Source: an uncultured Candidatus Saccharibacteria bacterium
GTDB lineage: Bacteria; Patescibacteriota; Doudnabacteria; UBA920
DNA: 64,000 bases
Direction: 5' to 3'
Assembly (NCBI GenBank): GCA_964434195.1
Contig: CAYSUI010000001.1
Location: 8,931-72,930 of the forward strand
Shown: one piece after another, positions 1 through 59,779 of the stretch
Layout: every line of letters starts with the position of its first letter
How positions within the stretch are numbered: position 1 is the first letter of the stretch
The notes under the pieces: generated by a model
Told to the model about the DNA's origin: nothing
What the model saw: only the letters and a program-made list of their open reading frames with translations
Database searches by the model: none
Position numbers and translations under genes: made by a program

Positions 1-25
1 TACTATAAAACAGAAATCGTCAAGG

Positions 26-505
26 TTAGTTTTCCACAGAAGTAAAAATGCGAGGACTCTTTATTTCCGGAAAATTGGTCTGAATAAATTCATAAAAACC
101 ATTATGTGTTCTTTGAAGGTAGTCTGGTACTGCTATATACAACCCCACACTTTCTGTAAAAGACTCTTCGTACTTTAATTCTTCGTCTTCTGCGTATGTT
201 TCTTCTACATAACGAGTAACGAAAGAATTTTGGTCTACCAATTTCTTCCACTCCTCGCGCTTTTTTGCGGTCATAAGGTACGCAAAAATATGATGCGCTA
301 TTTCGTGAGAAAAATTTGAAAGTTTGTAAGCCCGCATTTTATCTTCTGGCTTTAAGTCGTCTAGATATTTATATTCATCTGTATTTTCGTTTTCAAAACT
401 ATAAAAACGGATTGGTGTAGGTATTACAACTTTGCCACAATCTGGATCGGTATTCCAGTTGGGAAAATATTCACCTACATATGTAAATTCACCTGCTTCA
501 GGCAC
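26..505 (-). CDS. Hypothetical protein with an HEIAHH (HExxH) zinc-metallopeptidase-like motif. GTG start. In the same frame as ORF 515..895, separated from it only by one TGA (515-517).
   Basis: ORF track. HEIAHH motif read in the translation. The frame relation was checked by coordinate arithmetic (517-505=12). Confidence 0.4.
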   Translation of the reverse strand: MPEAGEFTYVGEYFPNWNTDPDCGKVVIPTPIRFYSFENENTDEYKYLDDLKPEDKMRAYKLSNFSHEIAHHIFAYLMTAKKREEWKKLVDQNSFVTRYVEETYAEDEELKYEESFTESVGLYIAVPDYLQRTHNGFYEFIQTNFPEIKSPRIFTSVEN

Positions 506-514
506 TACACTTTT

Positions 515-895
515 TCATTTCTGAAACTTATCTTTGGCAAGTAAATATTCGTCATCATTAAATCTTACATTCACGAGGTTAGGATTATACGAAATTTTTG
601 ATATTAGAGCTTTTTGAAGCAACTCTTCACCGAAAGCTTTTTTCAATATTCCAGGAAAGTCTTTAGTTTCCACGTCTCTTTCGAATCCCGAAAATTCCAC
701 TGGATACTTATAACTTTCTGCAATTGCCGCATAAATATCTTTTGCTTTTAAAATTGCTTCTATTAATAGCTGGGCTTTTGTAATGTCTTTTTTTCTGGAC
801 TTTAGTATTTTTTTATAGTCTAAACCAACACGATCCATCATTGCTTCATATTCTGGGACCTCTTTCCCTTCCATAAGGTCTATTACACCGTCCAC
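515..895 (-). CDS. Hypothetical protein. Possibly the N-terminal part of one roughly 290-aa gene continuing into 26..505 across an in-frame TGA.
   Basis: ORF track. Collinear and in-frame with the downstream ORF. Confidence 0.35.
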   Translation of the reverse strand: MDGVIDLMEGKEVPEYEAMMDRVGLDYKKILKSRKKDITKAQLLIEAILKAKDIYAAIAESYKYPVEFSGFERDVETKDFPGILKKAFGEELLQKALISKISYNPNLVNVRFNDDEYLLAKDKFQK

Positions 896-988
896 ATACT
901 CCTCTAGTGCTTTGGGTAGTCTTTCTTTGCTGTGTGGGTCTACACTTTTTTTGAACGCTTAAATGAGCGTAGCTTGTTCTTCGTCTTC

Positions 989-1192
989 TTATGAGTCTAC
1001 TGCATACTCTTCTAGAAAAATTTCTGCGTATGGTGCGAATATTTCCTCTAGCTCTTCACGAGACTTTTGTGGACGGTCTTTTTTGCCCGGTGTAGTAAAA
1101 ACCACATCGTTTATACCTTCTTGCTCTATATATTCAATGACCTTTCTTCGTAGATCTAACTCTGCTTCAGGATTAAACTTTAAATTTTCCAT
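989..1192 (-). CDS. Small acidic hypothetical protein (67 aa). In a different frame from 515..895.
   Basis: ORF track only. Confidence 0.3.
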   Translation of the reverse strand: MENLKFNPEAELDLRRKVIEYIEQEGINDVVFTTPGKKDRPQKSREELEEIFAPYAEIFLEEYAVDS

Positions 1193-1250
1193 TTGTTTCT
1201 GTGTGTTATAGGTTATGTCTTAATTTTAGGCAATTCTAAGATATTATAAA

Positions 1251-1288
1251 AGACTAGTAAAACGCGCGCCCGCGCGTTTTACTAGTCT
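1251..1288. repeat. 38-bp GC-cored perfect palindrome AGACTAGTAAAACGCGCG-cc-CGCGCGTTTTACTAGTCT, copy 1 of 4. Hairpin with a 4-nt A-run before the stem and a 4-nt T-run after it, at the 3' end of gene 1316..1831 (terminator-like).
   Basis: Read directly. Reverse complement of the left arm equals the right arm. Near-identical copies at 49208, 49758 and 50127. Confidence 0.85.
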
Positions 1289-1315
1289 ATAAAAAAATAC
1301 CCATTTATTGGGTAG

Positions 1316-1831
1316 TTAATCCTCTTGGATACCAAACACACTCTCGATTTCTTGGGCGACGAGGAGCAGAAATCTGTCGTCTTCTCCGCTTCGCATAGAA
1401 GAGTACCAGCCGGATGCAAATTTTCCGGTACCGCGCGGGAGGGACATTATTTGGCCAAGTTCGGTGCCAAAATAGTCACACTCTTTTGCCCGTACTGGGA
1501 TGACTCGTGGCTTTGTTTGCACTCGTTTCATCATCTCATAAAGCTCGAGTTGGTGTTCGACGGATCTGGGAGTAAGCATAACGATAATGTTTTTAACTCC
1601 CAAGTAACAGAGTTGTGCGAGTAACTCTATTTCGTTGGGTCTAACGACTAGGTATTCGAGCGACAACCGTCGCCTTATTCCTGCCATCATTACCTTTAGC
1701 TCTTCCCAGCAACCCTCTTCGTCTTTTTCGTGGACGACTACCCCCAAAAAGTTTTTCTGAGGGTTGAGTGTTAACTCTTGGTTTTGACCAAAGTAGATCG
1801 ACCCGGGGAATCTTTGCGAAAGATCTTCCAT
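1316..1831 (-). CDS. Hypothetical protein (171 aa).
   Basis: ORF track. No family recognised. Confidence 0.5.
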   Translation of the reverse strand: MEDLSQRFPGSIYFGQNQELTLNPQKNFLGVVVHEKDEEGCWEELKVMMAGIRRRLSLEYLVVRPNEIELLAQLCYLGVKNIIVMLTPRSVEHQLELYEMMKRVQTKPRVIPVRAKECDYFGTELGQIMSLPRGTGKFASGWYSSMRSGEDDRFLLLVAQEIESVFGIQED

Positions 1832-4542: not shown

Positions 4543-4615
4543 GTTATTTGGCAATAAGAAAAAATTTATGTATATTAGCTATTCGTATACTACTCGCTAA
4601 ACCTAGGAGGAAAAG

Positions 4616-4918
4616 ATGCTTACAATACTGAAGAAAGGGGTGACTTACAACATAGCTGTTGGAATGTATGACCAGTTAAAGGAACAAGTATTAACTCTTC
4701 AGTTCTTACACCTTGTTGTACATTACGATGCAGACAATGTATTCGGAATGATGGATGGTATAAATGAAAAACTTGCGACGTTTGACTACCCTAACTTGTT
4801 TGTATATTTAGATTTGAGTAGCAAACAAAATTTTGAAGAACTAAGCGAGTTTGAGCAGTCGGATATTACTGACATCTTTGTGAACTCTCAAACTCATTAC
4901 TATCTTACTACCAGTTAA
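4616..4918 (+). CDS. Hypothetical protein (100 aa).
   Basis: ORF preceded by a GGAGGA-type RBS (cctaggaggaaaagATG). Confidence 0.4.
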   Translation: MLTILKKGVTYNIAVGMYDQLKEQVLTLQFLHLVVHYDADNVFGMMDGINEKLATFDYPNLFVYLDLSSKQNFEELSEFEQSDITDIFVNSQTHYYLTTS

Positions 4919-4961: not shown

Positions 4962-5762
4962 CTATGGTATTAATTTATGAAGCCTTTCTACTCTCTGGTA
5001 GTAAGTAGGGTGACTTGCGTAAATTTTCTCTATCAAATTTCCCTTCTTACTTTTTTCTGAAAGATGTGAGCAAATTATGCGAAAAGCTTCCAAATACTTT
5101 TCCTTCCCTACGGTAAGGGCTGCTACCAAATCTGCCTGATACTCGTTTTGCTGCCTGTACTGGTTAAAAAATATTGGACAGAAAACGACAATGAAGACAA
5201 TATCCCAGAAGACTTTTAATAACCAAACACCGTCTGTGCCATGGGTAAGAATATCGTGGTATGTCGAGACTATCCAGATAAATGCTAGATATAACCCAGG
5301 CAAAAGAAGAGTAATTATTAACTGACTCCAAAGCGCATCATGACTAGCCACGTGCGCTTTCTCGTGAGCAAGAATGGCTTCTATTTGCTCTTCAGAAAGT
5401 TTATTTCCCCAGTAGATAACGACGGGTCTAAAAGGAAAATAACTTAATACTAGCATGTTACTATTTTCGGAATCCTTACTAATGAAAAAAGGTTGCTTAT
5501 AAACCGGAATTAAGCATGGTTTAGACAATTTAGCTTTTTTGAGATATGCGTAAAGATTCACAAGCAAACCTACTATTACTAAACTTGGCACTAGCATAAT
5601 AAGGAGTCGTGTCATAGATGCTTTAATTATCAGATTTATGAGCTCTGGAAATTTGGGGAGTACCATGAGGAATACCCATAGGTTAAACATAACTGCAACG
5701 AGCGCAAAAACTGATTTACGCTTGAAACCATTTCTTAAAACGGTTTTTATTTGCTGATCCAT
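4962..5762 (-). CDS. Membrane-embedded zinc metalloprotease, M48/M56-like (HEKAH motif).
   Basis: HExxH (AHEKAHVASHD) read in the translation, flanked by TM helices. Confidence 0.5.
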   Translation of the reverse strand: MDQQIKTVLRNGFKRKSVFALVAVMFNLWVFLMVLPKFPELINLIIKASMTRLLIMLVPSLVIVGLLVNLYAYLKKAKLSKPCLIPVYKQPFFISKDSENSNMLVLSYFPFRPVVIYWGNKLSEEQIEAILAHEKAHVASHDALWSQLIITLLLPGLYLAFIWIVSTYHDILTHGTDGVWLLKVFWDIVFIVVFCPIFFNQYRQQNEYQADLVAALTVGKEKYLEAFRIICSHLSEKSKKGNLIEKIYASHPTYYQRVERLHKLIP

Positions 5763-5873
5763 TTTTCACCTCCTATTTTTGTGAAATTTGTTTATACCAT
5801 ATTTATAAAAATAAGTCAAGTGTAAATAAAAAATCCTACATTCTGTAGGTTATAAATAGCAGGGTTTTATCTC

Positions 5874-6248
5874 TTAGTCTTTCGGGGAAATGTATACATC
5901 GTATACCTGTCCCCTTGGGGCGTTTAGCCATCTCCACACTTCATCTTTTGTGGGAGGTTTTTCGTTCTTGAGGTAAGCAATTTTTTCTCTCTCGATAGCC
6001 TCTTTTCGGAATCTGGGAAGGGTGGATTTTATTTCTTTTTCTAGGGTATGCAAATCTAAACCCTCTAAACCCACCTTCATTTCTTCGTACCCCGCTTCGA
6101 AGGCCTGATACTGAGCCTCCACTTTTTGCATTATAGATTCTTGCACCTCGGGGGGTAAGCCCTCGAGGAGCTGCGCGTCACTCATTTTGTAAATATTAAC
6201 AAAATGCTTTTCATTTTTCTCAACCTCTGAATTTTCCTTATCTGGCAT
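5874..6248 (-). CDS. Hypothetical protein (124 aa).
   Basis: ORF track. Confidence 0.4.
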   Translation of the reverse strand: MPDKENSEVEKNEKHFVNIYKMSDAQLLEGLPPEVQESIMQKVEAQYQAFEAGYEEMKVGLEGLDLHTLEKEIKSTLPRFRKEAIEREKIAYLKNEKPPTKDEVWRWLNAPRGQVYDVYISPKD

Positions 6249-6709: not shown

Positions 6710-7267
6710 TTAGCTTTCAGGATAGATTGCCTTTTGAATTATGACCAACGAACCCTTGGGGATACTTTGCTTAAGGAAACCCTCAAATTTATCTATTCGC
6801 TTAAAGTACTTCTGAATAAGATCCTCTGACCATCCTTCGTTTCTTTTTCTTGCGATCTTATATGCCCAATCGGTTTTCTCAATTAATATGTAGTAGTCGG
6901 GTTTAGGAAAAATAGCCTGAATTATTCTTCCAATAAAGATCAACGTTCTTGAATTATAGGAATATCCATAGGCAAGAACTTCGACTCCTGGATCATGCTC
7001 CCATATTTGTGTTTTATTATTGAAAACAAATACACAAAGTGGGAAAAGCAGAACGGCGAAAACTAAATAGAGACAATGAAGCCCCAAACCTTTTTTGAAC
7101 CTTGGGCTGAGAAATTCTTCTAACCTATTTCCAAAAATTCCTGGGTAGTAAGGGCAACGAATGCGCTTGGCCTTTACACCCACGGCTTTCATTTCTGCTT
7201 TCATTTTTCTTGCAAGCGGGGTCTTACCCACACCGTTTGTTCCCAAGACTGAGATTTTCATATTCAC
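6710..7267 (-). CDS. P-loop NTPase/kinase-like protein (GTNGVGKT Walker A) with an internal hydrophobic segment.
   Basis: Walker A motif at the N-terminus. Confidence 0.45.
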   Translation of the reverse strand: MNMKISVLGTNGVGKTPLARKMKAEMKAVGVKAKRIRCPYYPGIFGNRLEEFLSPRFKKGLGLHCLYLVFAVLLFPLCVFVFNNKTQIWEHDPGVEVLAYGYSYNSRTLIFIGRIIQAIFPKPDYYILIEKTDWAYKIARKRNEGWSEDLIQKYFKRIDKFEGFLKQSIPKGSLVIIQKAIYPES

Positions 7268-30832: not shown

Positions 30833-30873
30833 GTAAAAAAAACACCAGCGATGTGTTTCGCTGGTGTTTTTTT
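30833..30873. terminator. Bidirectional terminator: A10, CACCAGCG-atgtgttt-CGCTGGTG, T7. Sits downstream of groEL.
   Basis: Read directly. Confidence 0.6.
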
Positions 30874-39697: not shown

Positions 39698-39888
39698 ATA
39701 TTCAGAAGAATAAGAAAGCAGATTACCAGTTAGTTGTTATCTAGTCAAAACACAAATTTGACAGCATAATAATTGTTATTTAAGATACGAATATGTCTTT
39801 TAAGAATTTTGCAATTTGTCTTCAGTACCCAACTATCCAAGATAGGGGTTTTGACAAATCTGCGTAAGAAATAGCGAAAGACAGATTA

Positions 39889-39918
39889 CAAAACCCCAAT
39901 CAGATGATTGGGGTTTTG
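39889..39918. other. Hairpin CAAAACCCCAAT-cagatg-ATTGGGGTTTTG (12-bp stem) just upstream of a small basic-protein gene. GGGGTTTTG occurs three times nearby.
   Basis: Read directly. Confidence 0.4.
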
Positions 39919-39955
39919 TATTAGTTTAAGACTAGTACAAATTTCAGGAGTAAAA

Positions 39956-43446: not shown

Positions 43447-44760
43447 TTAACGCTCAGGCATTTTAACATAGTGGTTTTTTTTGCGAAAGACTATAAAAAT
43501 ATAAGCGAAAAACATAAGTAAATAAGAGCAGATTAGGTATGGGATATTTATTGAGAATTGCACTTTTGCTATTTCTACACTACTTATTGAATTTAAAACA
43601 GGAATTATAAACTGTAAGATTAGAGAGGCTAGAAACCCGAATCCATAACCCAAAAATGGGATTAAACTTAAGAAGCCAGTGAGCATTATAATAGGTACTA
43701 CTGGAAGAATAACTAGATTTGCTAATAAGGAGAGAAAGCTAAATGTGCCGAAATAATAGAGCGTAAAGGGTAAGGTGGCAATTGTAGCCGAGAGCGTACT
43801 TGTTATTAAAAGTGCGAGGCTTGAATTTTGATTCTTGAAAACTTTCCCTATGAATGGACTTAAATAAATTATCCCAAGCGTAGCAAGGAAACTTAACTGA
43901 AAACCCGGGTCGTAAAATAGAATTAACGGGTTAAGTAAAACCATAACACCACCGGTAAATAAAATAATAGAACTCTGTGAATATGGCCTGCCTGAAACCC
44001 TCGCCAAACATAGAGCCAGACCCATTATACTTGCGCGCACAACCGAAGCACCAGCTCCTGTTATAAGAGCGAAGATAAACACTAGTAACGCTAGAAAAAT
44101 AAAACTTCTTCTTCTACCTATTAACTTCGCTAACCATTCACCTATTAGAAGCGTAATAATTCCGATATTGTAACCGGAAACCGAAAGAACATGACTTACC
44201 CCACTCTGCCTGAAGGACTCCTTTATTTCTTCTGGAATATTTTTAGCAGACCCTATGAGCATACCCATTACAATCTGATTTTCTGGAAAAGAAATTCTTT
44301 CTTCGATTGTCTCCGTAACATAATGCTTTAGTGAATATATGTAGTGTATTACCCTATTCCCCTGATGTTTTTTTAAGACAATTACTTTTGGATTCTTTAT
44401 GAGCGCAGTCACGTTTTTTGTTTGTAGATAGTGGGGATAGTCGAAGCCGTTGAAGGGTTGGGGTTTTTCTAGCTTACCTTGCACCCAAACTCGATCTCCA
44501 TATTCAAATTTAGCGTAACCTCTGTATTGCAGTAGAATATATTCGGAATAATTGTCTGGCTTCAGGGTAATTAGCTGGAGACTTTTCCTTGCATCTACAT
44601 CTTCTACTATTATTCCGTCTATGCTTACAAAGTTTTGGTACTTACTAGAAAATTGTGTAGTAGTAGTTGGAATATAACCAAAACAAAAAGCCAGGATTGC
44701 CCCGAGCAATATACTGGCTGATGTAATTTTTACTAACATATGCTTGGTCATACCGAGCAT
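43447..44760 (-). CDS. comEC: ComEC/Rec2-like DNA-uptake channel protein (no metallo-beta-lactamase domain).
   Basis: Polytopic. HVLSVSGYNIG competence-domain signature. Confidence 0.6.
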   Translation of the reverse strand: MLGMTKHMLVKITSASILLGAILAFCFGYIPTTTTQFSSKYQNFVSIDGIIVEDVDARKSLQLITLKPDNYSEYILLQYRGYAKFEYGDRVWVQGKLEKPQPFNGFDYPHYLQTKNVTALIKNPKVIVLKKHQGNRVIHYIYSLKHYVTETIEERISFPENQIVMGMLIGSAKNIPEEIKESFRQSGVSHVLSVSGYNIGIITLLIGEWLAKLIGRRRSFIFLALLVFIFALITGAGASVVRASIMGLALCLARVSGRPYSQSSIILFTGGVMVLLNPLILFYDPGFQLSFLATLGIIYLSPFIGKVFKNQNSSLALLITSTLSATIATLPFTLYYFGTFSFLSLLANLVILPVVPIIMLTGFLSLIPFLGYGFGFLASLILQFIIPVLNSISSVEIAKVQFSINIPYLICSYLLMFFAYIFIVFRKKNHYVKMPER

Positions 44761-47517: not shown

Positions 47518-49143
47518 CTACTGATTAACCAAAATAGTATCGAGAGTTTCTTTTTTTCTACGTAGACGTCTATAAACCCACATACCAGCTGTTACAGATG
47601 CGAGCCCTGCAAGCACTAACCAAGAAGACATTGTGGCTTTTTGTAGAGGAGTTGCTGGGCGATCTATATTTTCTGGATAATACCCTCCACTCATATAACG
47701 TGGGATATCTATACTTGCGAATTTAGTTACGGCACTACTGAGTTTTGTGGCAGCGGAAGCAAGAGACTTTGCGGCACCAGTTATGCCTGTTAACGAAGTG
47801 TTAGTAACTGGGGTTTTCCCAGTTGTAACTGCTTGTGTTGCTTTTGTTGTTTTACCTGAATCTTTCGTGTCTGAAGTTTGTTTAGCCTGTGAGACAGTTT
47901 TTGACGTACCTGAATTAGTTGCGCCTAGGTTAGAAACTATTTCTGGTTTTGATTCTTTGGTAGCAGCAACTTTACCAGTTTCTGTGTTTGTCATATTTAT
48001 AGCACCTGAGGGGTTGGTGCTAGTATTCAAATTTTTATCGATCTTCTGATTAGCAGTGCTAATAGATTCTTGCTTTGTGGTTGGTTGATTTTTAGGAGCG
48101 GGAGAATTTGCAGTGTTTTTTGTCGGACTCTTAGAACTGTCATTAGAATTTTGAACAATAACTACTGGACTTACAGGTTGATTAGACTGAGGAGAAACCA
48201 TACCCAAAATACTTAGTATATTGGGAAGCAAAGTAATGATAACCGGTCCCACAAATTTCTTTGCTGCTGATATTATTTTCCCCCATCCATTTATTTCTGT
48301 TCTAGCTTTCTTGGAAGTTTTTAAAACGCCTTCGATATTCTTAGAATTCTTTTTAAAGAACTTGAAGAATGCGGTTATGGATTTTTTTGTAGATTTCCAG
48401 ATTCTTCTCATGAAGCCCGTAGGGGTAACAAGTATTCTATTAAATAGCTTTATAGTCCAACGAGTAGCGTATTTAGCAGAACTTACGAACCGGCCGAGAA
48501 GTCTCGGTAAAGCAGCTCCGGAGATTGCCATATACCCATAACCAGCGATTGCACCTACGGCCAATGCTGAAGCTACTATTACTGTGGTTTTTAATACTAT
48601 AAAGCTTAGCTGTTTAAAGAAAACAGTAAAACTTCCTTGGTTTAAAGCGGTACTAAGCGCGGAGATGTTGCTACCGAAAATCCGGGTGAGTCCAAACCGA
48701 GATTCAATTCTTTGCATGCCTGAGGCAATAGAGTTAAGACTTGGATTCTCTATAGGACTATTCATGAAACGAATAAATCTATCGTAACCTGACCCAATTG
48801 TAGTCGTGACTTTGGAAAATAATTTTCCAAACCAAGATTTTTTTTCTTGCACACCCTGCTTTTCTATAGAAAGATTTTCGGAACTAGAAATTTCTCTGTT
48901 ATAGTTTTGAGTTTTAATATTGGGGACATAGTTTGAACCCGATGCTGATGATTCACCATATTGCTCCATTCCGGGAACCATGTTGGTACTTTGCCCCTGA
49001 GTCATTGGATATACAACTGAGTCTAATGCGAGAACAGTTTGCGCTCCAATTAAGAAGAAGATACCAGCCGAAAGAAGCGTACTTTTAAATAACTTATATT
49101 TTGCGAAATTACGCATATTCTTTAATTTAATTAAGAAAACCAC
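47518..49143 (-). CDS. Surface/membrane-anchored hypothetical protein: signal peptide, a central TM, an S/T/K-rich low-complexity region, a C-terminal TM and a basic tail (RRLRRKK).
   Basis: Translation features. No LPXTG or PEP motif. Confidence 0.45.
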   Translation of the reverse strand: MVFLIKLKNMRNFAKYKLFKSTLLSAGIFFLIGAQTVLALDSVVYPMTQGQSTNMVPGMEQYGESSASGSNYVPNIKTQNYNREISSSENLSIEKQGVQEKKSWFGKLFSKVTTTIGSGYDRFIRFMNSPIENPSLNSIASGMQRIESRFGLTRIFGSNISALSTALNQGSFTVFFKQLSFIVLKTTVIVASALAVGAIAGYGYMAISGAALPRLLGRFVSSAKYATRWTIKLFNRILVTPTGFMRRIWKSTKKSITAFFKFFKKNSKNIEGVLKTSKKARTEINGWGKIISAAKKFVGPVIITLLPNILSILGMVSPQSNQPVSPVVIVQNSNDSSKSPTKNTANSPAPKNQPTTKQESISTANQKIDKNLNTSTNPSGAINMTNTETGKVAATKESKPEIVSNLGATNSGTSKTVSQAKQTSDTKDSGKTTKATQAVTTGKTPVTNTSLTGITGAAKSLASAATKLSSAVTKFASIDIPRYMSGGYYPENIDRPATPLQKATMSSWLVLAGLASVTAGMWVYRRLRRKKETLDTILVNQ

Positions 49144-49207
49144 AATAAAAACCCTATTTCAGGGTTTTTGTTTGCCTATTAATATAGCTTCCTCTAAGAA
49201 TTTTGCA

Positions 49208-49245
49208 AGACTAGTAAAACGCGCGGGCGCGCGATATACTAGTCT
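49208..49245. repeat. GC-cored palindrome copy 2 (AGACTAGTAAAACGCGCG-gg-CGCGCGATATACTAGTCT, right arm imperfect).
   Basis: Read directly. Same family as 1251..1288. Confidence 0.8.
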
Positions 49246-49264
49246 GCTATTAAATTGAAAATTT

Positions 49265-49762
49265 ATGTCTAAAGGATTTTTAGTTGTTGAGATGCTTAAA
49301 ATGTTTGGCTTTGGTGAAGGCGACATGCCCATACCTTTTGAAACCCATTTTGATTATATGCGGAGGATAAGGAAGGACTTATCTGCAAAAAAGCATAGAG
49401 ATATGCTTTACTATCTCAGCAAACAAGGCTTGATAAAATCCAAGACAGTCCATAAGAAGAAATTAATATCTTTAACTAAAAAAGGAGTACTTAAGATTCT
49501 TTATATGAAAGCCTCTGAGGAGACGACCGGACCACGTATAGATGGACTAAAACAATTGATAATTTTCGACATCCCGGAATACCCTTTGGTCCGGAACAAA
49601 CGTGATGTACTGAGAAGGATTCTAAAGAAACTAGAATTCAAAAAACTTCAAGCTAGTGTTTACTACAGGGACAAACCACTTCCACTGGAAGCAAGACAAT
49701 ATCTTAAGGAGTCGGGATTAAATAAATTTATTATTTCCTTGCTAGCTAAATTTGAAAACTAA
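49265..49762 (+). CDS. Short PaaX-like protein: N-terminal winged helix plus a Cas2/VapD-like ferredoxin-fold segment (LIIFDIPE..KRDVLRRILKKLEFKKLQASVYYRD).
   Basis: wHTH-like YYLSKQGLI..LTKKG. The beta-alpha-beta block resembles the Cas2 core and the middle domain of PaaX. The stop codon lies inside palindrome copy 3. Confidence 0.4.
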   Translation: MSKGFLVVEMLKMFGFGEGDMPIPFETHFDYMRRIRKDLSAKKHRDMLYYLSKQGLIKSKTVHKKKLISLTKKGVLKILYMKASEETTGPRIDGLKQLIIFDIPEYPLVRNKRDVLRRILKKLEFKKLQASVYYRDKPLPLEARQYLKESGLNKFIISLLAKFEN

Positions 49763-49793
49763 TAAAACGCGCGGGCGCGCGTTTTATTAGTCT
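49758..49793. repeat. GC-cored palindrome copy 3 (ACTAATAAAACGCGCG-gg-CGCGCGTTTTATTAGT). Overlaps the stop codon of 49265..49762.
   Basis: Read directly. Confidence 0.8.
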
Positions 49794-49859
49794 ATTGCAC
49801 AATCCCCGTCGTTAGTGTATCCTTTTGTGTTTTATACACATTTAAGGGGGATTTGAGAG

Positions 49860-50096
49860 ATGAGTAGTTTAATTAGAACAGGACACGAAGCGTTCTTGGC
49901 GCAGGCGCAAGGTAACGATTCAGTGGTTAGAATTGTAACTTTCTCGGGAGAGAGAAGACTTGGAGTAGTCTCTCTTATCGAAAATGGCACAGTAACTATA
50001 TTGGATTCCAAGGAGCAGGAATCCAGAATTACTATTGATAGAATCGAAATTACTGAACAACTAGATTTTAACGGACTAATGCATGAATGGGACTAG
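49860..50096 (+). CDS. Small beta-rich hypothetical protein (78 aa), possibly an Sm-like or SH3-like barrel.
   Basis: RBS aagggggatttgagagATG. The fold guess is weak. Confidence 0.4.
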   Translation: MSSLIRTGHEAFLAQAQGNDSVVRIVTFSGERRLGVVSLIENGTVTILDSKEQESRITIDRIEITEQLDFNGLMHEWD

Positions 50097-50126
50097 ATAT
50101 GAATACCTCGGATGAGGTTTTTTGTT

Positions 50127-50162
50127 GACTAGTAAAACGCGCGGGCGCGCGTTTTACTAGTC
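50127..50162. repeat. GC-cored palindrome copy 4 (GACTAGTAAAACGCGCG-gg-CGCGCGTTTTACTAGTC). Lies between convergent genes (bidirectional terminator position).
   Basis: Read directly. Confidence 0.85.
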
Positions 50163-50165
50163 TTT

Positions 50166-50765
50166 TTAATAGTCGATCCCTCTCTGAGCGAGGATACCTT
50201 TGTAGTAGGGGTGTTGTACCATACGCATCTCGGTGACCATGTCACAGAGTTCTAGGATTTTTTCGTACTTATTGTGTCCGGTTATTATTAGATGGACTGG
50301 TTCGGGTTTTAACTTGATTAATTCGACAATTTCGTCTTCTGTTATTAAGCCGACTTCAAGTGCGGAAATTACTTCGTCTAGAAATACTACTTGGTATTCA
50401 CCGCTAGTAAGAATTTTTTTGGCTTTTTCTAACCCTTCTTTGGCGGCTTTTATATGTGTTTCTTTTTCCTTGGTATCACCTAGGATACCTACGAAACCTA
50501 AACCTACCTGTTCATTATGAATTTTTCCTAGGCCTTCCGGTATAGAAATTTTATTTAAAAATTCGATTTCTGCGGATAGAGGCCACTCCCCTTCTTTTGT
50601 ACGGTCTTGATCGTCTCTTTTTTTTGCTTTAACAAACTGCATTATGTAGACATTTAACCCTGCACCACTTGCGCGTATGCATGTTCCAATAGCGGCTGTA
50701 GTCTTTCCTTTTCCTGCACCTATATTACAAATAACCAAACCTTTTATAGGATTTAAATCTTTCAT
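50166..50765 (-). CDS. ATP:corrinoid adenosyltransferase (CobA/CobO/BtuR family).
   Basis: P-loop GAGKGKTTAAIG followed by RA.GAGLNVYIMQFVK, characteristic of BtuR. Confidence 0.7.
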   Translation of the reverse strand: MKDLNPIKGLVICNIGAGKGKTTAAIGTCIRASGAGLNVYIMQFVKAKKRDDQDRTKEGEWPLSAEIEFLNKISIPEGLGKIHNEQVGLGFVGILGDTKEKETHIKAAKEGLEKAKKILTSGEYQVVFLDEVISALEVGLITEDEIVELIKLKPEPVHLIITGHNKYEKILELCDMVTEMRMVQHPYYKGILAQRGIDY

Positions 50766-50900
50766 ATTTGCTTTTTTTATAATTACATGTTATAGTTAAA
50801 AGTCTATTCATTAGACTCGCGTGTGGTATTATCTACACACGTAAGAACATAGTTTGTCGCAACTCACCCGCGACACGGAAAGAATGTAGGTTACGGTAAG

Positions 50901-51179
50901 GTGGAACCAATACTTGGTTTTTTGGTGATTGGCGTTCTTATTTTTGTTTCCGGTATGGCTTGTCGGACTTTCGGAGGAATTATAGCAGTAATTGTAGGTG
51001 GGATTCTGGTTTGGATTATCACCCACTCTCTAACATCGGGGAACCCGATCGATGCACACACAATACCCCAAGTCGCCCAAGAGGCGAGCACTGAGTTAAC
51101 AAGAAATTCATTTAATTGGTTTCCTTCGGCGATGGCCGAAATGGCATTCCTGCTAGGATCGTTTTTCGCAAGAGACTAG
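50901..51179 (+). CDS. Small membrane protein (GTG start).
   Basis: ORF track. Two TM helices. Confidence 0.3.
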   Translation: MEPILGFLVIGVLIFVSGMACRTFGGIIAVIVGGILVWIITHSLTSGNPIDAHTIPQVAQEASTELTRNSFNWFPSAMAEMAFLLGSFFARD

Positions 51180-51253
51180 ACCGCAATTGAGCGGTTTTTT
51201 ATTTGACTCAACAGTTTACAAAGATTTATATTTTCTTAAAAGGAGGAATCGGG

Positions 51254-51490
51254 ATGATTGCTGGACTCTGTAACATGCAAACCAAATTGGTAAGTCAACG
51301 ACTTCTGAAACACTCTTGGACAGAGCTTAGTCAAGAAGAAAGATCAGAACTGATAAGGCTAATGATTTATGTAGAGCGAGAATCTCGGTGGGGCCAATGG
51401 CTCGACCTTGGGGTAACGTTTTTCCTCTGCCAAATTGGTCTTGGGGTTTTTTACTTTCTCTTCTACCAAGTTTCTAACCTCTTATATTGA
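51254..51490 (+). CDS. Small hypothetical protein with a C-terminal TM (78 aa).
   Basis: AGGAGG RBS, then ATG at 51254. A TTGACT promoter lies upstream. Confidence 0.4.
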   Translation: MIAGLCNMQTKLVSQRLLKHSWTELSQEERSELIRLMIYVERESRWGQWLDLGVTFFLCQIGLGVFYFLFYQVSNLLY

Positions 51491-51570
51491 CCGATTGACT
51501 ATTGGTCTTTTTTATATTAAAATATTTACTTATTTATACATTAAACTAAAATTTTTCAAGGGGGTGAGGA

Positions 51571-51906
51571 ATGAACAAGTTAATCCCAGCTGAGGTTTTC
51601 GATAAAACAACTTCAGAGATAAAAAACCTTTTAGAGACTATCGATGTCGGACTTAGAGCATCCGGTAGTTACAGCAACTCTGAAAGGATAGGTAAGGTTT
51701 TGTCTCTCTTAACTGCACTTATGAATTCGGCAAGCGTCTCAGATCCAGAAGAAGAAATTTCTCCTACAAACATTAAGAACGAGACTCTGATTGAACTACT
51801 AAGAGGTCATTGGTTAATGACTAACGTCTCTACTGGCAGCCATAGAACCAGAAGACTTGGCGCTGATATTTTTCAGAAGGCAAAAAAGATACTTTTTAGG
51901 AATTAA
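51571..51906 (+). CDS. Hypothetical protein (111 aa).
   Basis: RBS caagggggtgaggaATG. Confidence 0.45.
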   Translation: MNKLIPAEVFDKTTSEIKNLLETIDVGLRASGSYSNSERIGKVLSLLTALMNSASVSDPEEEISPTNIKNETLIELLRGHWLMTNVSTGSHRTRRLGADIFQKAKKILFRN

Positions 51907-52034
51907 TATACACACATTAAGTGTGTTTTTTTAATGAGCACAAAACAAACTATAATATGTTTAATTGACTTTTTTAAAAATAAATGCTATAATATGATTT
52001 ATTATCCAAATCTTTTTTAAATCGGAGAAATGGT

Positions 52035-52277
52035 ATGAGAATAGATAGTATTCAAGCATTACTCGACAAAAACAATTACTCTGGTGAGAAAATTAAGTTA
52101 GTAACTCCGGGGGGACTTATTGAAGTCACTGGAGTTGAGAAGAGTAATGCCGGCGAAGAACTCGGTTTTGAATTTAAAACCGAAGATGATGGTTGGGGGT
52201 TTTTGACCCCAGAAAGTATTTCCGGAATAATCTTCCCCCCTTCGCCGAAAGCCAACCCCTACGGCAAATTTCAATAA
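52035..52277 (+). CDS. Hypothetical protein (80 aa).
   Basis: ORF plus a weak hairpin/T7 terminator at 52283-52304. Confidence 0.4.
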   Translation: MRIDSIQALLDKNNYSGEKIKLVTPGGLIEVTGVEKSNAGEELGFEFKTEDDGWGFLTPESISGIIFPPSPKANPYGKFQ

Positions 52278-52335
52278 ACCCACAAGACCCACCGGTCTTT
52301 TTTTGTTTCCCATAGAGCAAAGTTTTTTATTACTA

Positions 52336-52432
52336 CACCGGGGTCCTGTCATTCGGCACCCCCACTGGGTGCTCGGATGCACTGCGCGCCCATTGGGGGT
52401 CCCCCGCCCAATGCCACCCCTTGCGTGTAGGA
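52336..52432. ncRNA. About 97-nt GC-rich (roughly 65-70 % GC) structured element with at least two strong local hairpins (52356-52372 and 52391-52413). Candidate small RNA of unknown class.
   Basis: Composition contrasts sharply with the AT-rich surroundings. Stems verified by complementarity. Not coding. Fits no tRNA cloverleaf that I could draw. Confidence 0.25.
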
Positions 52433-52437
52433 TTTTT

Positions 52438-52998
52438 CTAGTTTTTGCTATCCAACTTTTGAACTTCTAAAGTATGGACGGCAACGCTAATAATTCCTTT
52501 ATTATTGGAGACACTGACTCTATTCTTCATTAAATATCTCGTACCAAGAACGTTCCTTACAATAAAATTAATGTTTTTTGTTTGAACTTCACCTGTTTTA
52601 ATAGACTGTTCTAACATATTTCCAGTAAAACTATCCTGAAGCTCAAATACCCCTCTCCCCGATAAATAATAACTACCGGTGTAGCCGAACTTAATTCCTT
52701 CTTCTGGATCATTTTCAAACTCTACAAATACATGGGTATTACCAGTATTCTCGAGCTTAAATACGAGGTATATAACTCCATTATTTTGTATTCTTTCAGT
52801 TCTAAGATTCATACTGAAAGCATCTGCGGTCATTTTGTCCAATTCAACCTGTTCATTCATTAACCAAACCTGCCTGAACCCTATTTTATATGCAAGAAAA
52901 GCAGCTATAGTTGCCGCTATTGTGGTAAGAAAACTAGAATCTAAAAAACTATGTATACAGTGAATTAAAGGAGATGCGAAAAGACAAATTTCTTGCAT
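52438..52998 (-). CDS. Hypothetical protein with an N-terminal TM (186 aa).
   Basis: ORF track. Confidence 0.45.
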   Translation of the reverse strand: MQEICLFASPLIHCIHSFLDSSFLTTIAATIAAFLAYKIGFRQVWLMNEQVELDKMTADAFSMNLRTERIQNNGVIYLVFKLENTGNTHVFVEFENDPEEGIKFGYTGSYYLSGRGVFELQDSFTGNMLEQSIKTGEVQTKNINFIVRNVLGTRYLMKNRVSVSNNKGIISVAVHTLEVQKLDSKN

Positions 52999-53000
52999 AT

Positions 53001-53088
53001 ATTTAATAGCATATTCCCGGAGCTGGCTTTGCCGGGCCGGGAATATATCAGCGGAAAGGGTGAGTCATGAGAGGGAAAACCATTGTTT
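53001..53088. terminator. Two hairpins between the RNR stop and the next minus-strand gene: ATATTCCCGG..CCGGGAATAT (10-bp stem) and ATGAGAGGGAAAA-ccattg-TTTTCCCTCTCAT (13-bp stem).
   Basis: Read directly. Neither has a classic U-run on the minus strand. Confidence 0.4.
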
Positions 53089-58452: not shown

Positions 58453-58549
58453 AGATTACCTCCTTTTTATCTGAGTTGAATGAATTTTATAACATGATCC
58501 TATTAAAAAAGCAATATAAAAGAGCTAGTATTTACTAGCTCTTTTATAT

Positions 58550-59779
58550 TTATTTCATTTTTTTCCTAATGAAGGCAGGAATATCCAATTCGTCGTCGTC
58601 TGCACCTGTATCCTGGGTTCTTGGCTGTTCTTTAGGTGGTATGGGCTCTATGGGCTTAGGGGTAAACAAAGGCCTTCTTACTTCCATTTTGGGCTCCTCG
58701 CGCTGAATAGGGGGAGGAGTTTGAACTGGAGGAGGAGTTGGTTGAGGGTTAAAAATACTTGGGCGTTTTGGTTCTTCTTTAAATTCTGGAAAAACAACTG
58801 GAGGACGTTTATTGGTTTCGTCGAAACCTGTGGCTATGACAGTAATCTTAATTTCGTCGTTTAGACTTTCGTCTATAACAGCACCGAATTTAACTTTGGC
58901 GTCTGGGTCTATGCTCTTTGTAATAACCTTTGCTGCTTCGTCTATTTCAAACATACCCAGGTCGCCACCACCGGTTATATTGAATAGCACACCTTTGGCA
59001 CCGTCTATTGCCAGCTCTAAAAGTGGGGAGTTTATAGCCTGCTTGGCGGCGTTCTCTGCCCTACCGTCACCACTTGCCCTACCTATACCCATGAGGGCTG
59101 TTCCTGCGTCTGCCATAATACTCCGCACATCTGCGAAGTCAGCGTTTACTATACCGTGGGTAGTTATAAGGTCTGAGATACCAGAAATACCTTGACGAAG
59201 CACTTCGTCTACGGTTTTAAATGCGTCTACCAGCGAGGTTTTCTTGTCTATTATCTGTAGTATTCGGTCGTTGTGAATAGATATAATAGCATCCACTTTG
59301 TCTTTTAAATTATCATAACCAACCTCTGAAATTTCTTTTCTCTTACTTCCTTCAAAAGTAAAAGGCTTGGTAACAACGGCAACTGTTAGTATTCCCCTAT
59401 TCTTAGCAAGTTCGGCAACAATTGGCGCAGCACCAGTACCAGTACCGCCACCAAGTCCACAAGTAATAAAAACCATATCGGCGTTACTGATAACTTCTTC
59501 AATTTCTTCCTGAGATTCTTCCGCTGCAGCCCGCCCGAGGTCTGGATTCATACCACTACCAAGACCCTTGGTAATTGTCTTACCAATGTGAACTTTTTTG
59601 TCTGAGTTGTTGTTATGGAGGGCCTGGGCGTCAGTATTTATTGATATAAATTCAACCCCACGAATTCCAAGCTCAGTCATCCGGTTGACGGCGTTTGTAC
59701 CAGAACCGCCTATACCGAGGACCTTAATTCGGGCGAATGTCTCGATTTTCGGTTTAACTTCCATAATGCTTTTTTTCAT
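58550..59779 (-). CDS. ftsZ: Cell-division GTPase FtsZ.
   Basis: [13 protein letters not shown], tubulin signature GGGTGTG, Pro-rich linker and conserved C-terminal DIPAFIRKK peptide. Confidence 0.95.

Follow-up and report, generated by a model that had tools for sequence, protein, structure and literature searches.

Near-identical palindromes around a mini-PaaX gene in a Patescibacteria genome: probable cognate sites of the encoded protein

We analysed a stretch of 64,000 nucleotides of contig CAYSUI010000001.1 from an uncultured Candidatus Saccharibacteria bacterium (Doudnabacteria in the GTDB lineage), in the following called the window. It contains four near-identical palindromes, which are probably the cognate cis-sites, doubling as transcription stops, of a PaaX-like protein of 165 amino acids (aa) encoded between them. 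In the tiny genomes of bacteria of the candidate phyla radiation (CPR/Patescibacteria) few regulators can be recognised, and to our knowledge their transcription control is almost unstudied.

The element has the consensus (AG)ACTAGT-AAAACGCGCG-GG/CC-CGCGCGTTTT-ACTAGT(CT) and is found at the following positions:

1251..1288, minus strand: palindrome copy 1, centre GG on the minus strand (CC on the plus strand), inverted relative to copies 2-4
49208..49245, plus strand: palindrome copy 2, AGACTAGTAAAACGCGCGGGCGCGCGATATACTAGTCT, imperfect, with ATAT in the right arm where the other copies have TTTT
49758..49793, plus strand: palindrome copy 3, ACTAATAAAACGCGCGGGCGCGCGTTTTATTAGTCT, with a symmetrical double change ACTAAT...ATTAGT, 66 nt 5' of a 78-aa gene
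50127..50162, plus strand: palindrome copy 4, GACTAGTAAAACGCGCGGGCGCGCGTTTTACTAGTC, between the 78-aa gene and a convergent BtuR/CobO gene

These four near-identical copies had been reported in a preliminary description of the DNA, and their number is far from chance, as the 22-nt core AAAACGCGCGNNCGCGCGTTTT has four matches in the window with up to three mismatches, compared to 0.00 expected from 100 dinucleotide-preserving shuffles. The 16-nt half-site matches exactly eight times, which are both arms of all four copies, and neither further half-sites nor degenerate extra copies were found in the 64 kb. The stems comprise 16-18 bp around a 2-nt centre, and the outer ACTAGT arms of the 38-bp element are 28 bp apart, measured between their centres. 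The stems had been described as perfect throughout, which holds for copies 1, 3 and 4 but not for copy 2 due to its ATAT variant. RNA folding, one of the checks that had been proposed, yielded stable hairpins of -21.5 to -28.6 kcal/mol (z-scores -4.7 to -9.4), and a terminator scan called copy 4 as well as the inner core of both copy 2 and copy 3; both results support the suggested capacity of each copy to act as a bidirectional terminator.

The window has a GC content of ~38%, and a census of perfect hairpins showed that other terminators in it have the same build of outer arm, A-tract, core, short loop, core, T-tract and outer arm (e.g. 39887-39920, 58513-58550, and 30836-30873), each of them unique in sequence. 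The architecture of the palindromes is ordinary for this genome, their repetition is not, and the argument that the copies are too similar for independent terminators is supported. This common architecture and the terminator-like calls of the scan tool would also fit an ordinary strong bidirectional terminator without any trans-acting factor, copied by local duplications or insertions, in which case the likeness would reflect recent common origin only. With Rho-independent bidirectional terminators the palindromes share the GC-rich stem, the flanking A- and T-tracts and, for copies 1, 3 and 4, which are all located after stop codons, the position at 3' gene ends. They differ from them in being near-identical at four places with one copy in a promoter region, in a conservation beyond the needs of a stem, and in the link to one protein family. 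We give plain terminators only a small chance.

In the main locus the elements are arranged in the order palindrome, 165-aa gene, palindrome, 78-aa gene, palindrome, and the alternating layout was thus described correctly before. The palindromes are spaced by 512 bp and then 333 bp, with genes inside both intervals:

49265..49762, plus strand: 165-aa PaaX-like gene, with a PF20803 match and a predicted PaaX-like fold
49860..50096, plus strand: 78-aa orphan gene between copies 3 and 4, with the ribosome-binding site AAGGGGGA in front

The TAA stop codon at 49760-49762, which ends the 165-aa gene, lies within copy 3, an overlap that had been noticed earlier. The encoded protein matches Pfam family PF20803 (PaaX_M, the Cas2-like central domain of PaaX) with 31.9 bits at a cutoff of 24, and shows weak matches to winged helix-turn-helix (wHTH) and Cas2 families as well. 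An AlphaFold2 model built on 50 homologues (mean pLDDT 80) predicts a wHTH and a ferredoxin-like, i.e. Cas2-like, domain. Using Foldseek against PDB, the best and sole significant match was 8a39, PaaX of E. coli W (E 9.6e-4, probability 1.0). Cas2 chains and small proteins of the wHTH type came next, and a profile search of PDB sequences agrees with this picture, weakly. The protein ends directly after the Cas2-like domain and has no PaaX_C domain. According to the model it is a two-domain "mini-PaaX", consisting of a wHTH and a Cas2-like dimerisation domain without the ligand-binding C-terminal domain.

A profile search revealed a family of more than 4,541 clusters (defined at 90% identity; ~175 aa), all of which carry PF20803, while database labels of members read Cas2, PaaX or hypothetical. 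Members have a length of 165-180 aa, and named matches belong to Doudnabacteria or the "Patescibacteria group". Within the sample examined, the family is confined to CPR/Patescibacteria; the window itself encodes one PaaX-like gene. When 2.9 million viral contigs were scanned with the family alignment, a single partial relative was detected, with CCACGGCCGTGG directly after its stop codon, and a link of the family to phages was not seen.

According to PMC9493321, E. coli PaaX binds TGATTC(N27)GAATCA (39 bp in total) and uses steric hindrance to repress Px, its own promoter. The protein described here shares with it the wHTH and the Cas2-like dimerisation domain. Its putative site is dyad-symmetric as well (38 bp here) and, as predicted from sequence, would lie over the regulator's own promoter. 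It differs in its length of 165-180 aa without the C-terminal phenylacetyl-CoA-binding domain, in the absence of paa genes among the neighbours and the scanned open reading frames (ORFs) of the window, and in a site that is continuous, near-perfect and GC-cored instead of being composed of two separated hexamers. Also, a second matched site is located at the mini-PaaX stop codon. The pair would belong to a known kind, the PaaX-type repressor and its operator; new are the minimal two-domain form, the matched site at the stop codon and the very wide distribution in CPR.

The association of gene and palindrome is not restricted to the window. For 11 independent family members (the window and its relative L009 counted as one, plus ten further) out of the >4,500 clusters, the upstream 250 bp of the PaaX-like gene were locally aligned with its downstream 250 bp. 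In 8/11, one lineage-specific palindrome of 30-44 bp, usually centred on CGGCCG, was found on both sides of the gene:

Window / L009: palindrome core AAAACGCGCGGGCGCGCGTTTT, z 16
L011: palindrome core TTGGTAGACAAAACGTGCGGCCGCACGTTTTGTCTACCAA, three copies, z 27
L023: palindrome core GAAAATGAACGGCCGTTCATTTTC, z 22
L025: palindrome core TTTTAGACGGCCGTCTAAAA, z 16
L013: palindrome core AAACCGTACCTACGGTT, z 10
L034: palindrome core AAAAAATGCGRCCGCA, z 9.5
L015: palindrome core ATTTAGACGGCCGTCTAAAT, z 8.3
L028 / L029: palindrome core TTTCTAACGGCCGTTAGAAA, z 6.5-7.5

Matches of the core only were present on both sides in L012 (GACGATCGTC) and L027 (GCGCGGCC[GA]CG). As control, an alignment score of at least 17.5 was reached by 7/10 PaaX-like genes versus 2/124 other ORFs of the same loci, and both exceptions are explained by repeated PDDEXK_3 paralogues. 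Three such paralogue genes occur in L023 (17778-20331) among genes of a type IV secretion system (T4SS; PrgI, TraC-like), a conjugation-like cluster of Patescibacteria. In ~110 kb of loci fetched through the protein, all long CGGCCG-centred palindromes were located within 500 nt of a PaaX-like gene. The window locus is an ordinary member of the gene-palindrome pattern. In L011, the Doudnabacteria locus with three copies, the second and third palindromes (4609-4760 and 5015-5165) are each followed by ~100 nt of conserved non-coding sequence (z 33), so that a direct repeat of ~400 bp separates the PaaX-like gene from the TrbL_3/T4SS gene; a leader present twice or a small RNA are conceivable.

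Four of the loci (L011, L023, L025, and L034) are syntenic, with DUF192, three conserved hypotheticals, the PaaX-like gene, TrbL_3 and the T4SS cluster, and in two others (L013 and L027) the PaaX-like gene lies between smpB and argS. In both syntenic sets the palindromes differ between the genomes but are matched within each genome, which argues for a co-evolution of site and protein and not for mobility. Also, the palindromes of P0003 and P0058, paralogues encoded on a single Doudnabacteria contig, are unrelated to each other. As judged from the sequences, this points to the behaviour expected of sites tracking the specificity of their own protein, which is hard to get from neutral duplicates. 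Plain terminators would explain neither the matched pairs beside one protein family in several phyla nor the combination of a difference between syntenic orthologues with a match within each genome.

In the relatives, the upstream copy usually overlaps or abuts the promoter, while the downstream copy is placed at the stop codon. In L034, the upstream core lies inside the 18-nt spacer of a 12/12 promoter (TTGACA-18-TATAAT) and the downstream copy overlaps the stop codon. The upstream copy of L025 overlaps a 10/12 promoter, and weaker promoters with the same geometry were read by eye in L015 (TTGTTA-18-TAAATT) and L027 (TTGCAA-17-TATTGT). By analogy with L034, a candidate can be read in the window:

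49212..49240, plus strand: putative promoter of the 165-aa gene, TAGTAA-N17-TATACT, inside copy 2, read by eye

Here, the ATAT substitution of copy 2 creates the -10-like TATACT. In L028, L023 and L013 a promoter-like site was found just upstream, and the palindrome would span about +1 to +40. Both predicted placements, overlapping the promoter or covering +1 to +40, are classical repressor positions. The preliminary description had seen copy 2 in a divergent promoter region, where a terminator makes little sense. The location is right, and we propose as the answer to this puzzle that copy 2 is an operator copy embedded in a promoter; a strong terminator 19 nt ahead of a start codon would be harmful.

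An alternative at the RNA level has a modest chance. Here, hairpins in the transcript, in the 5' untranslated region and as 3' terminator, would be recognised at their apex by the Cas2-like domain, which resembles an RNA recognition motif, for control of translation, mRNA stability or termination and read-through instead of promoter access. The hairpins are very stable, the CGGCCG apex is conserved while the lower stems covary across lineages, the downstream copies at stop codons are terminator-like, and the Cas2 family includes ribonucleases according to the names of the PDB matches. In addition, the right arm of the upstream palindrome of L028 holds the Shine-Dalgarno sequence AAGAGG and abuts the ATG, and the palindromes downstream of a promoter-like site in L028, L023 and L013 would be transcribed. 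Against transcript recognition stand the upstream copies of L034, L025, L015, L027 and the window, which overlap the -35 and -10 regions and would be mostly untranscribed. Upstream copies are usually imperfect and form poorer hairpins, yet their sequence is kept. Finally, the N-terminal domain is a DNA-binding wHTH, and the characterised PaaX binds duplex DNA (PMC9493321). If true, recognition at the RNA level would be the more novel outcome.

The closest public sequences to the window, identified by a genome scan with the 22-nt core, are metagenome-assembled genomes (MAGs) of Candidatus Saccharibacteria. The public scans gave 5 genome loci and 3 metagenome loci; among the latter, L006 and L008 were plain (CG)n runs and were discarded. 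A three-way comparison at the HisRS / 541-aa / BtuR locus showed the following contents:

L002 (GTDB MAG): one palindrome, no genes at the locus
Window: palindrome, 165-aa gene, palindrome, 78-aa gene, palindrome
L009 (Logan assembly): palindrome, 165-aa gene, palindrome, 78-aa gene, 107-aa gene, palindrome

L002 and L009 are 98.2-98.8% identical, and the window is 87-94% identical to both. The proposed check for presence or absence of the bracketed genes among sister genomes was thus positive: they are missing in L002 and present in L009 and the window, and the breakpoints lie in the palindromes, copy 4 being the right edge of the segment missing from L002. The variation among relatives consists of this one indel and the 107-aa gene of L009, which is unbounded by a site, as there is no palindrome between it and the 78-aa gene.

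Of all parts of the module, the palindromes show the highest conservation between window and L009, with 92-97% identity. The nucleotide identity is 78.6% for the 165-aa gene, 82.7% for the 78-aa gene, and 70.5% for the spacer between copy 3 and the start of the 78-aa gene, while the flanking genes HisRS and BtuR have 88.3% and 91.8%. Copy 3 is identical in L009 at 37/38 positions, including the compensatory ACTAAT/ATTAGT, and the ATAT variant of copy 2 is kept as well; the presence of these variants in both genomes argues against simple gene-conversion homogenisation. An exception among the copy-specific variants is the centre of copy 2, with GG in the window and CC in the corresponding copy A of L009. 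The conservation of the palindromes above that of module and spacer points to purifying selection. It is not explained by plain terminators, since a 17-bp stem would tolerate single changes, and the neighbouring sequences have only 70-83% identity. In favour of plain terminators, the single copy of L002 sits at the BtuR 3' end, and ~25 nt after copy A of L009 (4663-4687, the first codons of the PaaX-like gene) resemble those after copy C (5876-5901; 21/24, z 6.8), at equal distance from the palindrome. The sequence after copy C is a duplicate of the BtuR 3' flank. The window counterpart (49246-49325 versus 50163-50242) shows no significant similarity (z 0.6), so that the hint at a former duplication of palindrome and right flank as a unit is significant in L009 only.

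The divergence of the module is roughly in step with that of its flanks. Therefore, the simplest history is an ancestral module followed by a recent deletion between the repeats in L002; parsimony favours such a deletion, although the single palindrome of L002 (right arm TTTTATTAGTCC) is no simple hybrid of the L009 copies, which makes this direction less certain. As direct repeats of 36-38 bp, the sites would be passive substrates for deletion, which would account for the single palindrome of L002 and the loss of its genes.

The same polymorphism could indicate mobile cassettes, with the palindromes as recombination sites resembling attC or terminal inverted repeats, and with a site-specific recombinase, a hairpin-specific enzyme encoded elsewhere, or the Cas2-like protein itself as the enzyme. 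Several findings agree with mobility: presence and absence with breakpoints in palindromes between strains as close as L002 and L009, the variable content between copies B and C (78 aa in the window, 78 + 107 aa in L009), the flipped centre dinucleotide of window copy 2 and L009 copy A, the orphan nature of all bracketed or adjacent genes, and the breaking of assemblies at the repeat. We nevertheless regard such sites as improbable. No integrase or transposase was detected by the Pfam scan of 38 of the 54 window ORFs of at least 130 aa, and the suggested search for a tyrosine recombinase or an IS200/IS605 TnpA-like gene, run on the window only, was likewise negative among these 38 ORFs. One exact-core copy was found in the whole sister MAG, one partial relative among the 2.9 million viral contigs, and the family occupies conserved syntenic positions across deep divergence. 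Furthermore, divergence in step with the flanks indicates vertical descent with a later deletion in L002.

Integron arrays, which the preliminary description had considered, share with the locus small genes in the same orientation that alternate with palindromic sites, as well as gene content that varies among close relatives. They differ in possessing IntI, attI and Pc, none of which was found here (recombinase scan of the 38 ORFs), and in their attC sites, which are imperfect palindromes with extrahelical bases and conserved R/L boxes (RYYYAAC/GTTRRRY); the palindromes here, 36-38 bp long and perfect apart from copy 2, lack both. In addition, the genes here come with ribosome-binding sites and, it seems, promoters of their own, the first "cassette" encodes a regulator that is conserved and has homologues at fixed chromosomal positions elsewhere, and no palindrome lies between the 78-aa and the 107-aa gene of L009. 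Given also the low copy number and the tie of the palindrome to one protein family, the suggestion of an integron-like cassette array was not borne out.

The second suggestion, a mini-element of the REP/BIME type (repetitive extragenic palindrome / bacterial interspersed mosaic element) mobilised by a RAYT transposase, is very improbable. Genomes with REP/BIME and RAYT typically contain tens to hundreds of copies at scattered sites. The palindromes here are also extragenic, GC-cored and repeated in near-identical copies. They differ by their very low copy number (four in 64 kb without degenerate extras, and a single exact-core copy in the sister MAG), by the clustering of three copies in one locus, by the absence of a Y1 transposase or RAYT among the 38 ORFs scanned, by the lack of a conserved 5' GTAG-type tetranucleotide, and by palindrome sequences that differ from one PaaX-like paralogue to the next.

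CRISPR arrays consist of 23-55 bp repeats and unique spacers of ~21-72 bp and are accompanied by cas1 and cas2. A Cas2-fold protein beside repeated palindromes is common to both systems, and several sources name family members "Cas2". A CRISPR-like array was ruled out by spacing and content: the "spacers" are 330-550 bp in size and gene-bearing, there are two or three repeats only, neither cas1 nor any other cas gene turned up in the scanned ORFs, and the Cas2-like domain shares its chain with a wHTH, like that of PaaX. A DNA-uptake sequence was rejected because of far too few copies. A parS-like centromere site is compatible with the copy number, with nothing in support, and the protein is PaaX-like, not ParB-like.

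The evidence favours a shared protein-recognition site, which the preliminary description had named as one possibility. We infer from the sequences that the mini-PaaX protein binds these sites as duplex DNA and acts as a repressor. A dimer would bind the dyad-symmetric site of ~38 bp. Binding to copy 2 in the gene's own promoter would lead to autorepression, and as this copy abuts the -35 region of the predicted promoter of the 541-aa gene, it may influence this gene too. Copy 3 at the stop codon would serve as a strong bidirectional terminator of the regulator gene and as a second operator, and its position ahead of the 78-aa gene could insulate or co-regulate this gene, which is a candidate target of the regulator. 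Copies 4 and 1 would be further sites beside small lineage-specific orphan genes.

A number of observations weigh against these assignments. Perfect palindromes of 36-44 bp exceed in length and perfection what most operators require, and across lineages conservation is highest at the centre CGGCCG while the outer arms covary, a pattern that also suits recognition of the apex of an RNA hairpin or cruciform. The promoter read in the window is weak and under the threshold of the scan tool, copy 4 between convergent genes has no obvious operator target, and no matched pair appeared in the upstream/downstream alignment of L019. L002 retains a palindrome at a locus without the regulator gene. Related palindromes also occur in L001, L003-L005 and L007 with no PaaX-like gene within 8 kb. 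These may be distant operators or plain terminators, and together with the L002 locus they imply that some palindromes may be plain terminators. One of these loci, L005 from an uncultured CPR-like MAG, has two different perfect CGGCCG-centred palindromes, GTTGATAAAACGCGCGGCCGCGCGTTTTATCAAC and TTTCTTAAACTCACGGCCGTGAGTTTAAGAAA, 11 bp apart between tuf and rpsJ (7189-7265).

It is also conceivable, with a slim chance, that the wHTH-Cas2-like protein and the perfect palindromes on either side of its gene make up a self-contained module for DNA structure, in which extruded hairpins or cruciforms would be recognised via the conserved CGGCCG apex. The indel between strains, the flipped centre dinucleotide and the perfect symmetry maintained over 36-44 bp might all be explained in this way. 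If so, genes in CPR genomes would be actively gained and lost at the palindromes, or transcription would be terminated there in a protein-dependent manner, and a Cas2-fold protein would act on palindromic repeats outside CRISPR.

With the palindromes as cognate sites of the mini-PaaX protein, the data suggest that a very large CPR family (>4,500 clusters at 90% identity) consists of minimal PaaX-type regulators. The predicted binding site of each regulator can be read from the genome, as its own palindrome flanks the gene twice. This would provide ready-made operator predictions and a natural data set for the co-evolution of protein-DNA specificity. Thereby, candidate regulators are nominated for the type IV secretion cluster of Patescibacteria and other conserved neighbours, and Cas2 mis-annotations of the family can be corrected. 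Such palindromes are also a source of assembly breaks and strain-level deletions. A literature search for PaaX with Cas2-like, palindromes, Patescibacteria or Saccharibacteria found no description of the family or its palindromes.

Further features around the palindromes are the following:

50105..50118, plus strand: small intrinsic terminator hairpin ACCTCGGATGAGGT followed by TTTTTT, the 78-aa gene's own (terminator scan)
50166-50765, minus strand: BtuR/CobO gene, convergent with the 78-aa gene
47518-49143, minus strand: 541-aa gene, divergent from the 165-aa gene, with copy 2 between them
1316-1831, minus strand: 171-aa orphan gene, whose terminator adjoins copy 1
989-1192, minus strand: 67-aa ORF, called by the gene caller in L032

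Since the 78-aa gene has its own terminator, copy 4 is not needed to end its transcription. The 78-aa protein has no Pfam, PHROG or NCBIfam match, and an exhaustive search of 1.84 billion representatives gave no relatives outside its own cluster besides four weak, probably spurious matches to long proteins. PHROGs and NCBIfam searches with ten small neighbouring proteins gave only a sub-threshold Cas2 match, for the 165-aa protein, and Rfam at permissive E-values gave only chance-level matches, far under gathering scores, for the locus and the L009 insert.

A minus-strand promoter-like site (TTGCAA-16-TATATT, 49208->49181) is the predicted promoter of the 541-aa gene mentioned above. The 541-aa protein is without Pfam match. 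It contains a long low-complexity region rich in Ser, Thr and Lys and, by eye, hydrophobic stretches suggestive of membrane segments. At its annotated GTG start (49143) lies a terminator-like hairpin (49147-49169), and an ATG near 49116 is the likelier start codon.

Copy 1 is located between the terminator of the 171-aa gene and the 67-aa ORF, with a perfect TATAAT on the minus strand (1248->1243) 2 nt past its end and ahead of this ORF. The genes around it (171, 67, 126, and 159 aa; window 1-1831) have no Pfam, PHROG or NCBIfam family match, and for the 171-aa protein only an identical protein was found in a homologue search of 5.8 billion proteins. L030 and L031, Logan contigs from two independent assemblies of one strain, break off within copy 1 at window 1258-1259, showing that the repeat breaks short-read assemblies.

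In L009, ~53 bp of the BtuR 3' end are duplicated (5853-6130) around a GC-richer non-coding insert of ~170 bp (~5906-6075), which is absent from the window and L002, has no Rfam match, and has no other copy in the sequences compared. Beside the locus, a second variable region comprises 2.26 kb in the window (50766-53005) and 1.26 kb in L002 (3310-4566), of which ~170 bp are alignable with 79% identity; its ORFs of 80-186 aa are without Pfam, PHROG or NCBIfam match. A gene for a ComEC-type competence protein (PF03772) lies 5 kb from the locus at 43447-44760 on the minus strand, which is consistent with natural transformation as a route of strain-level gene gain and loss in this lineage.

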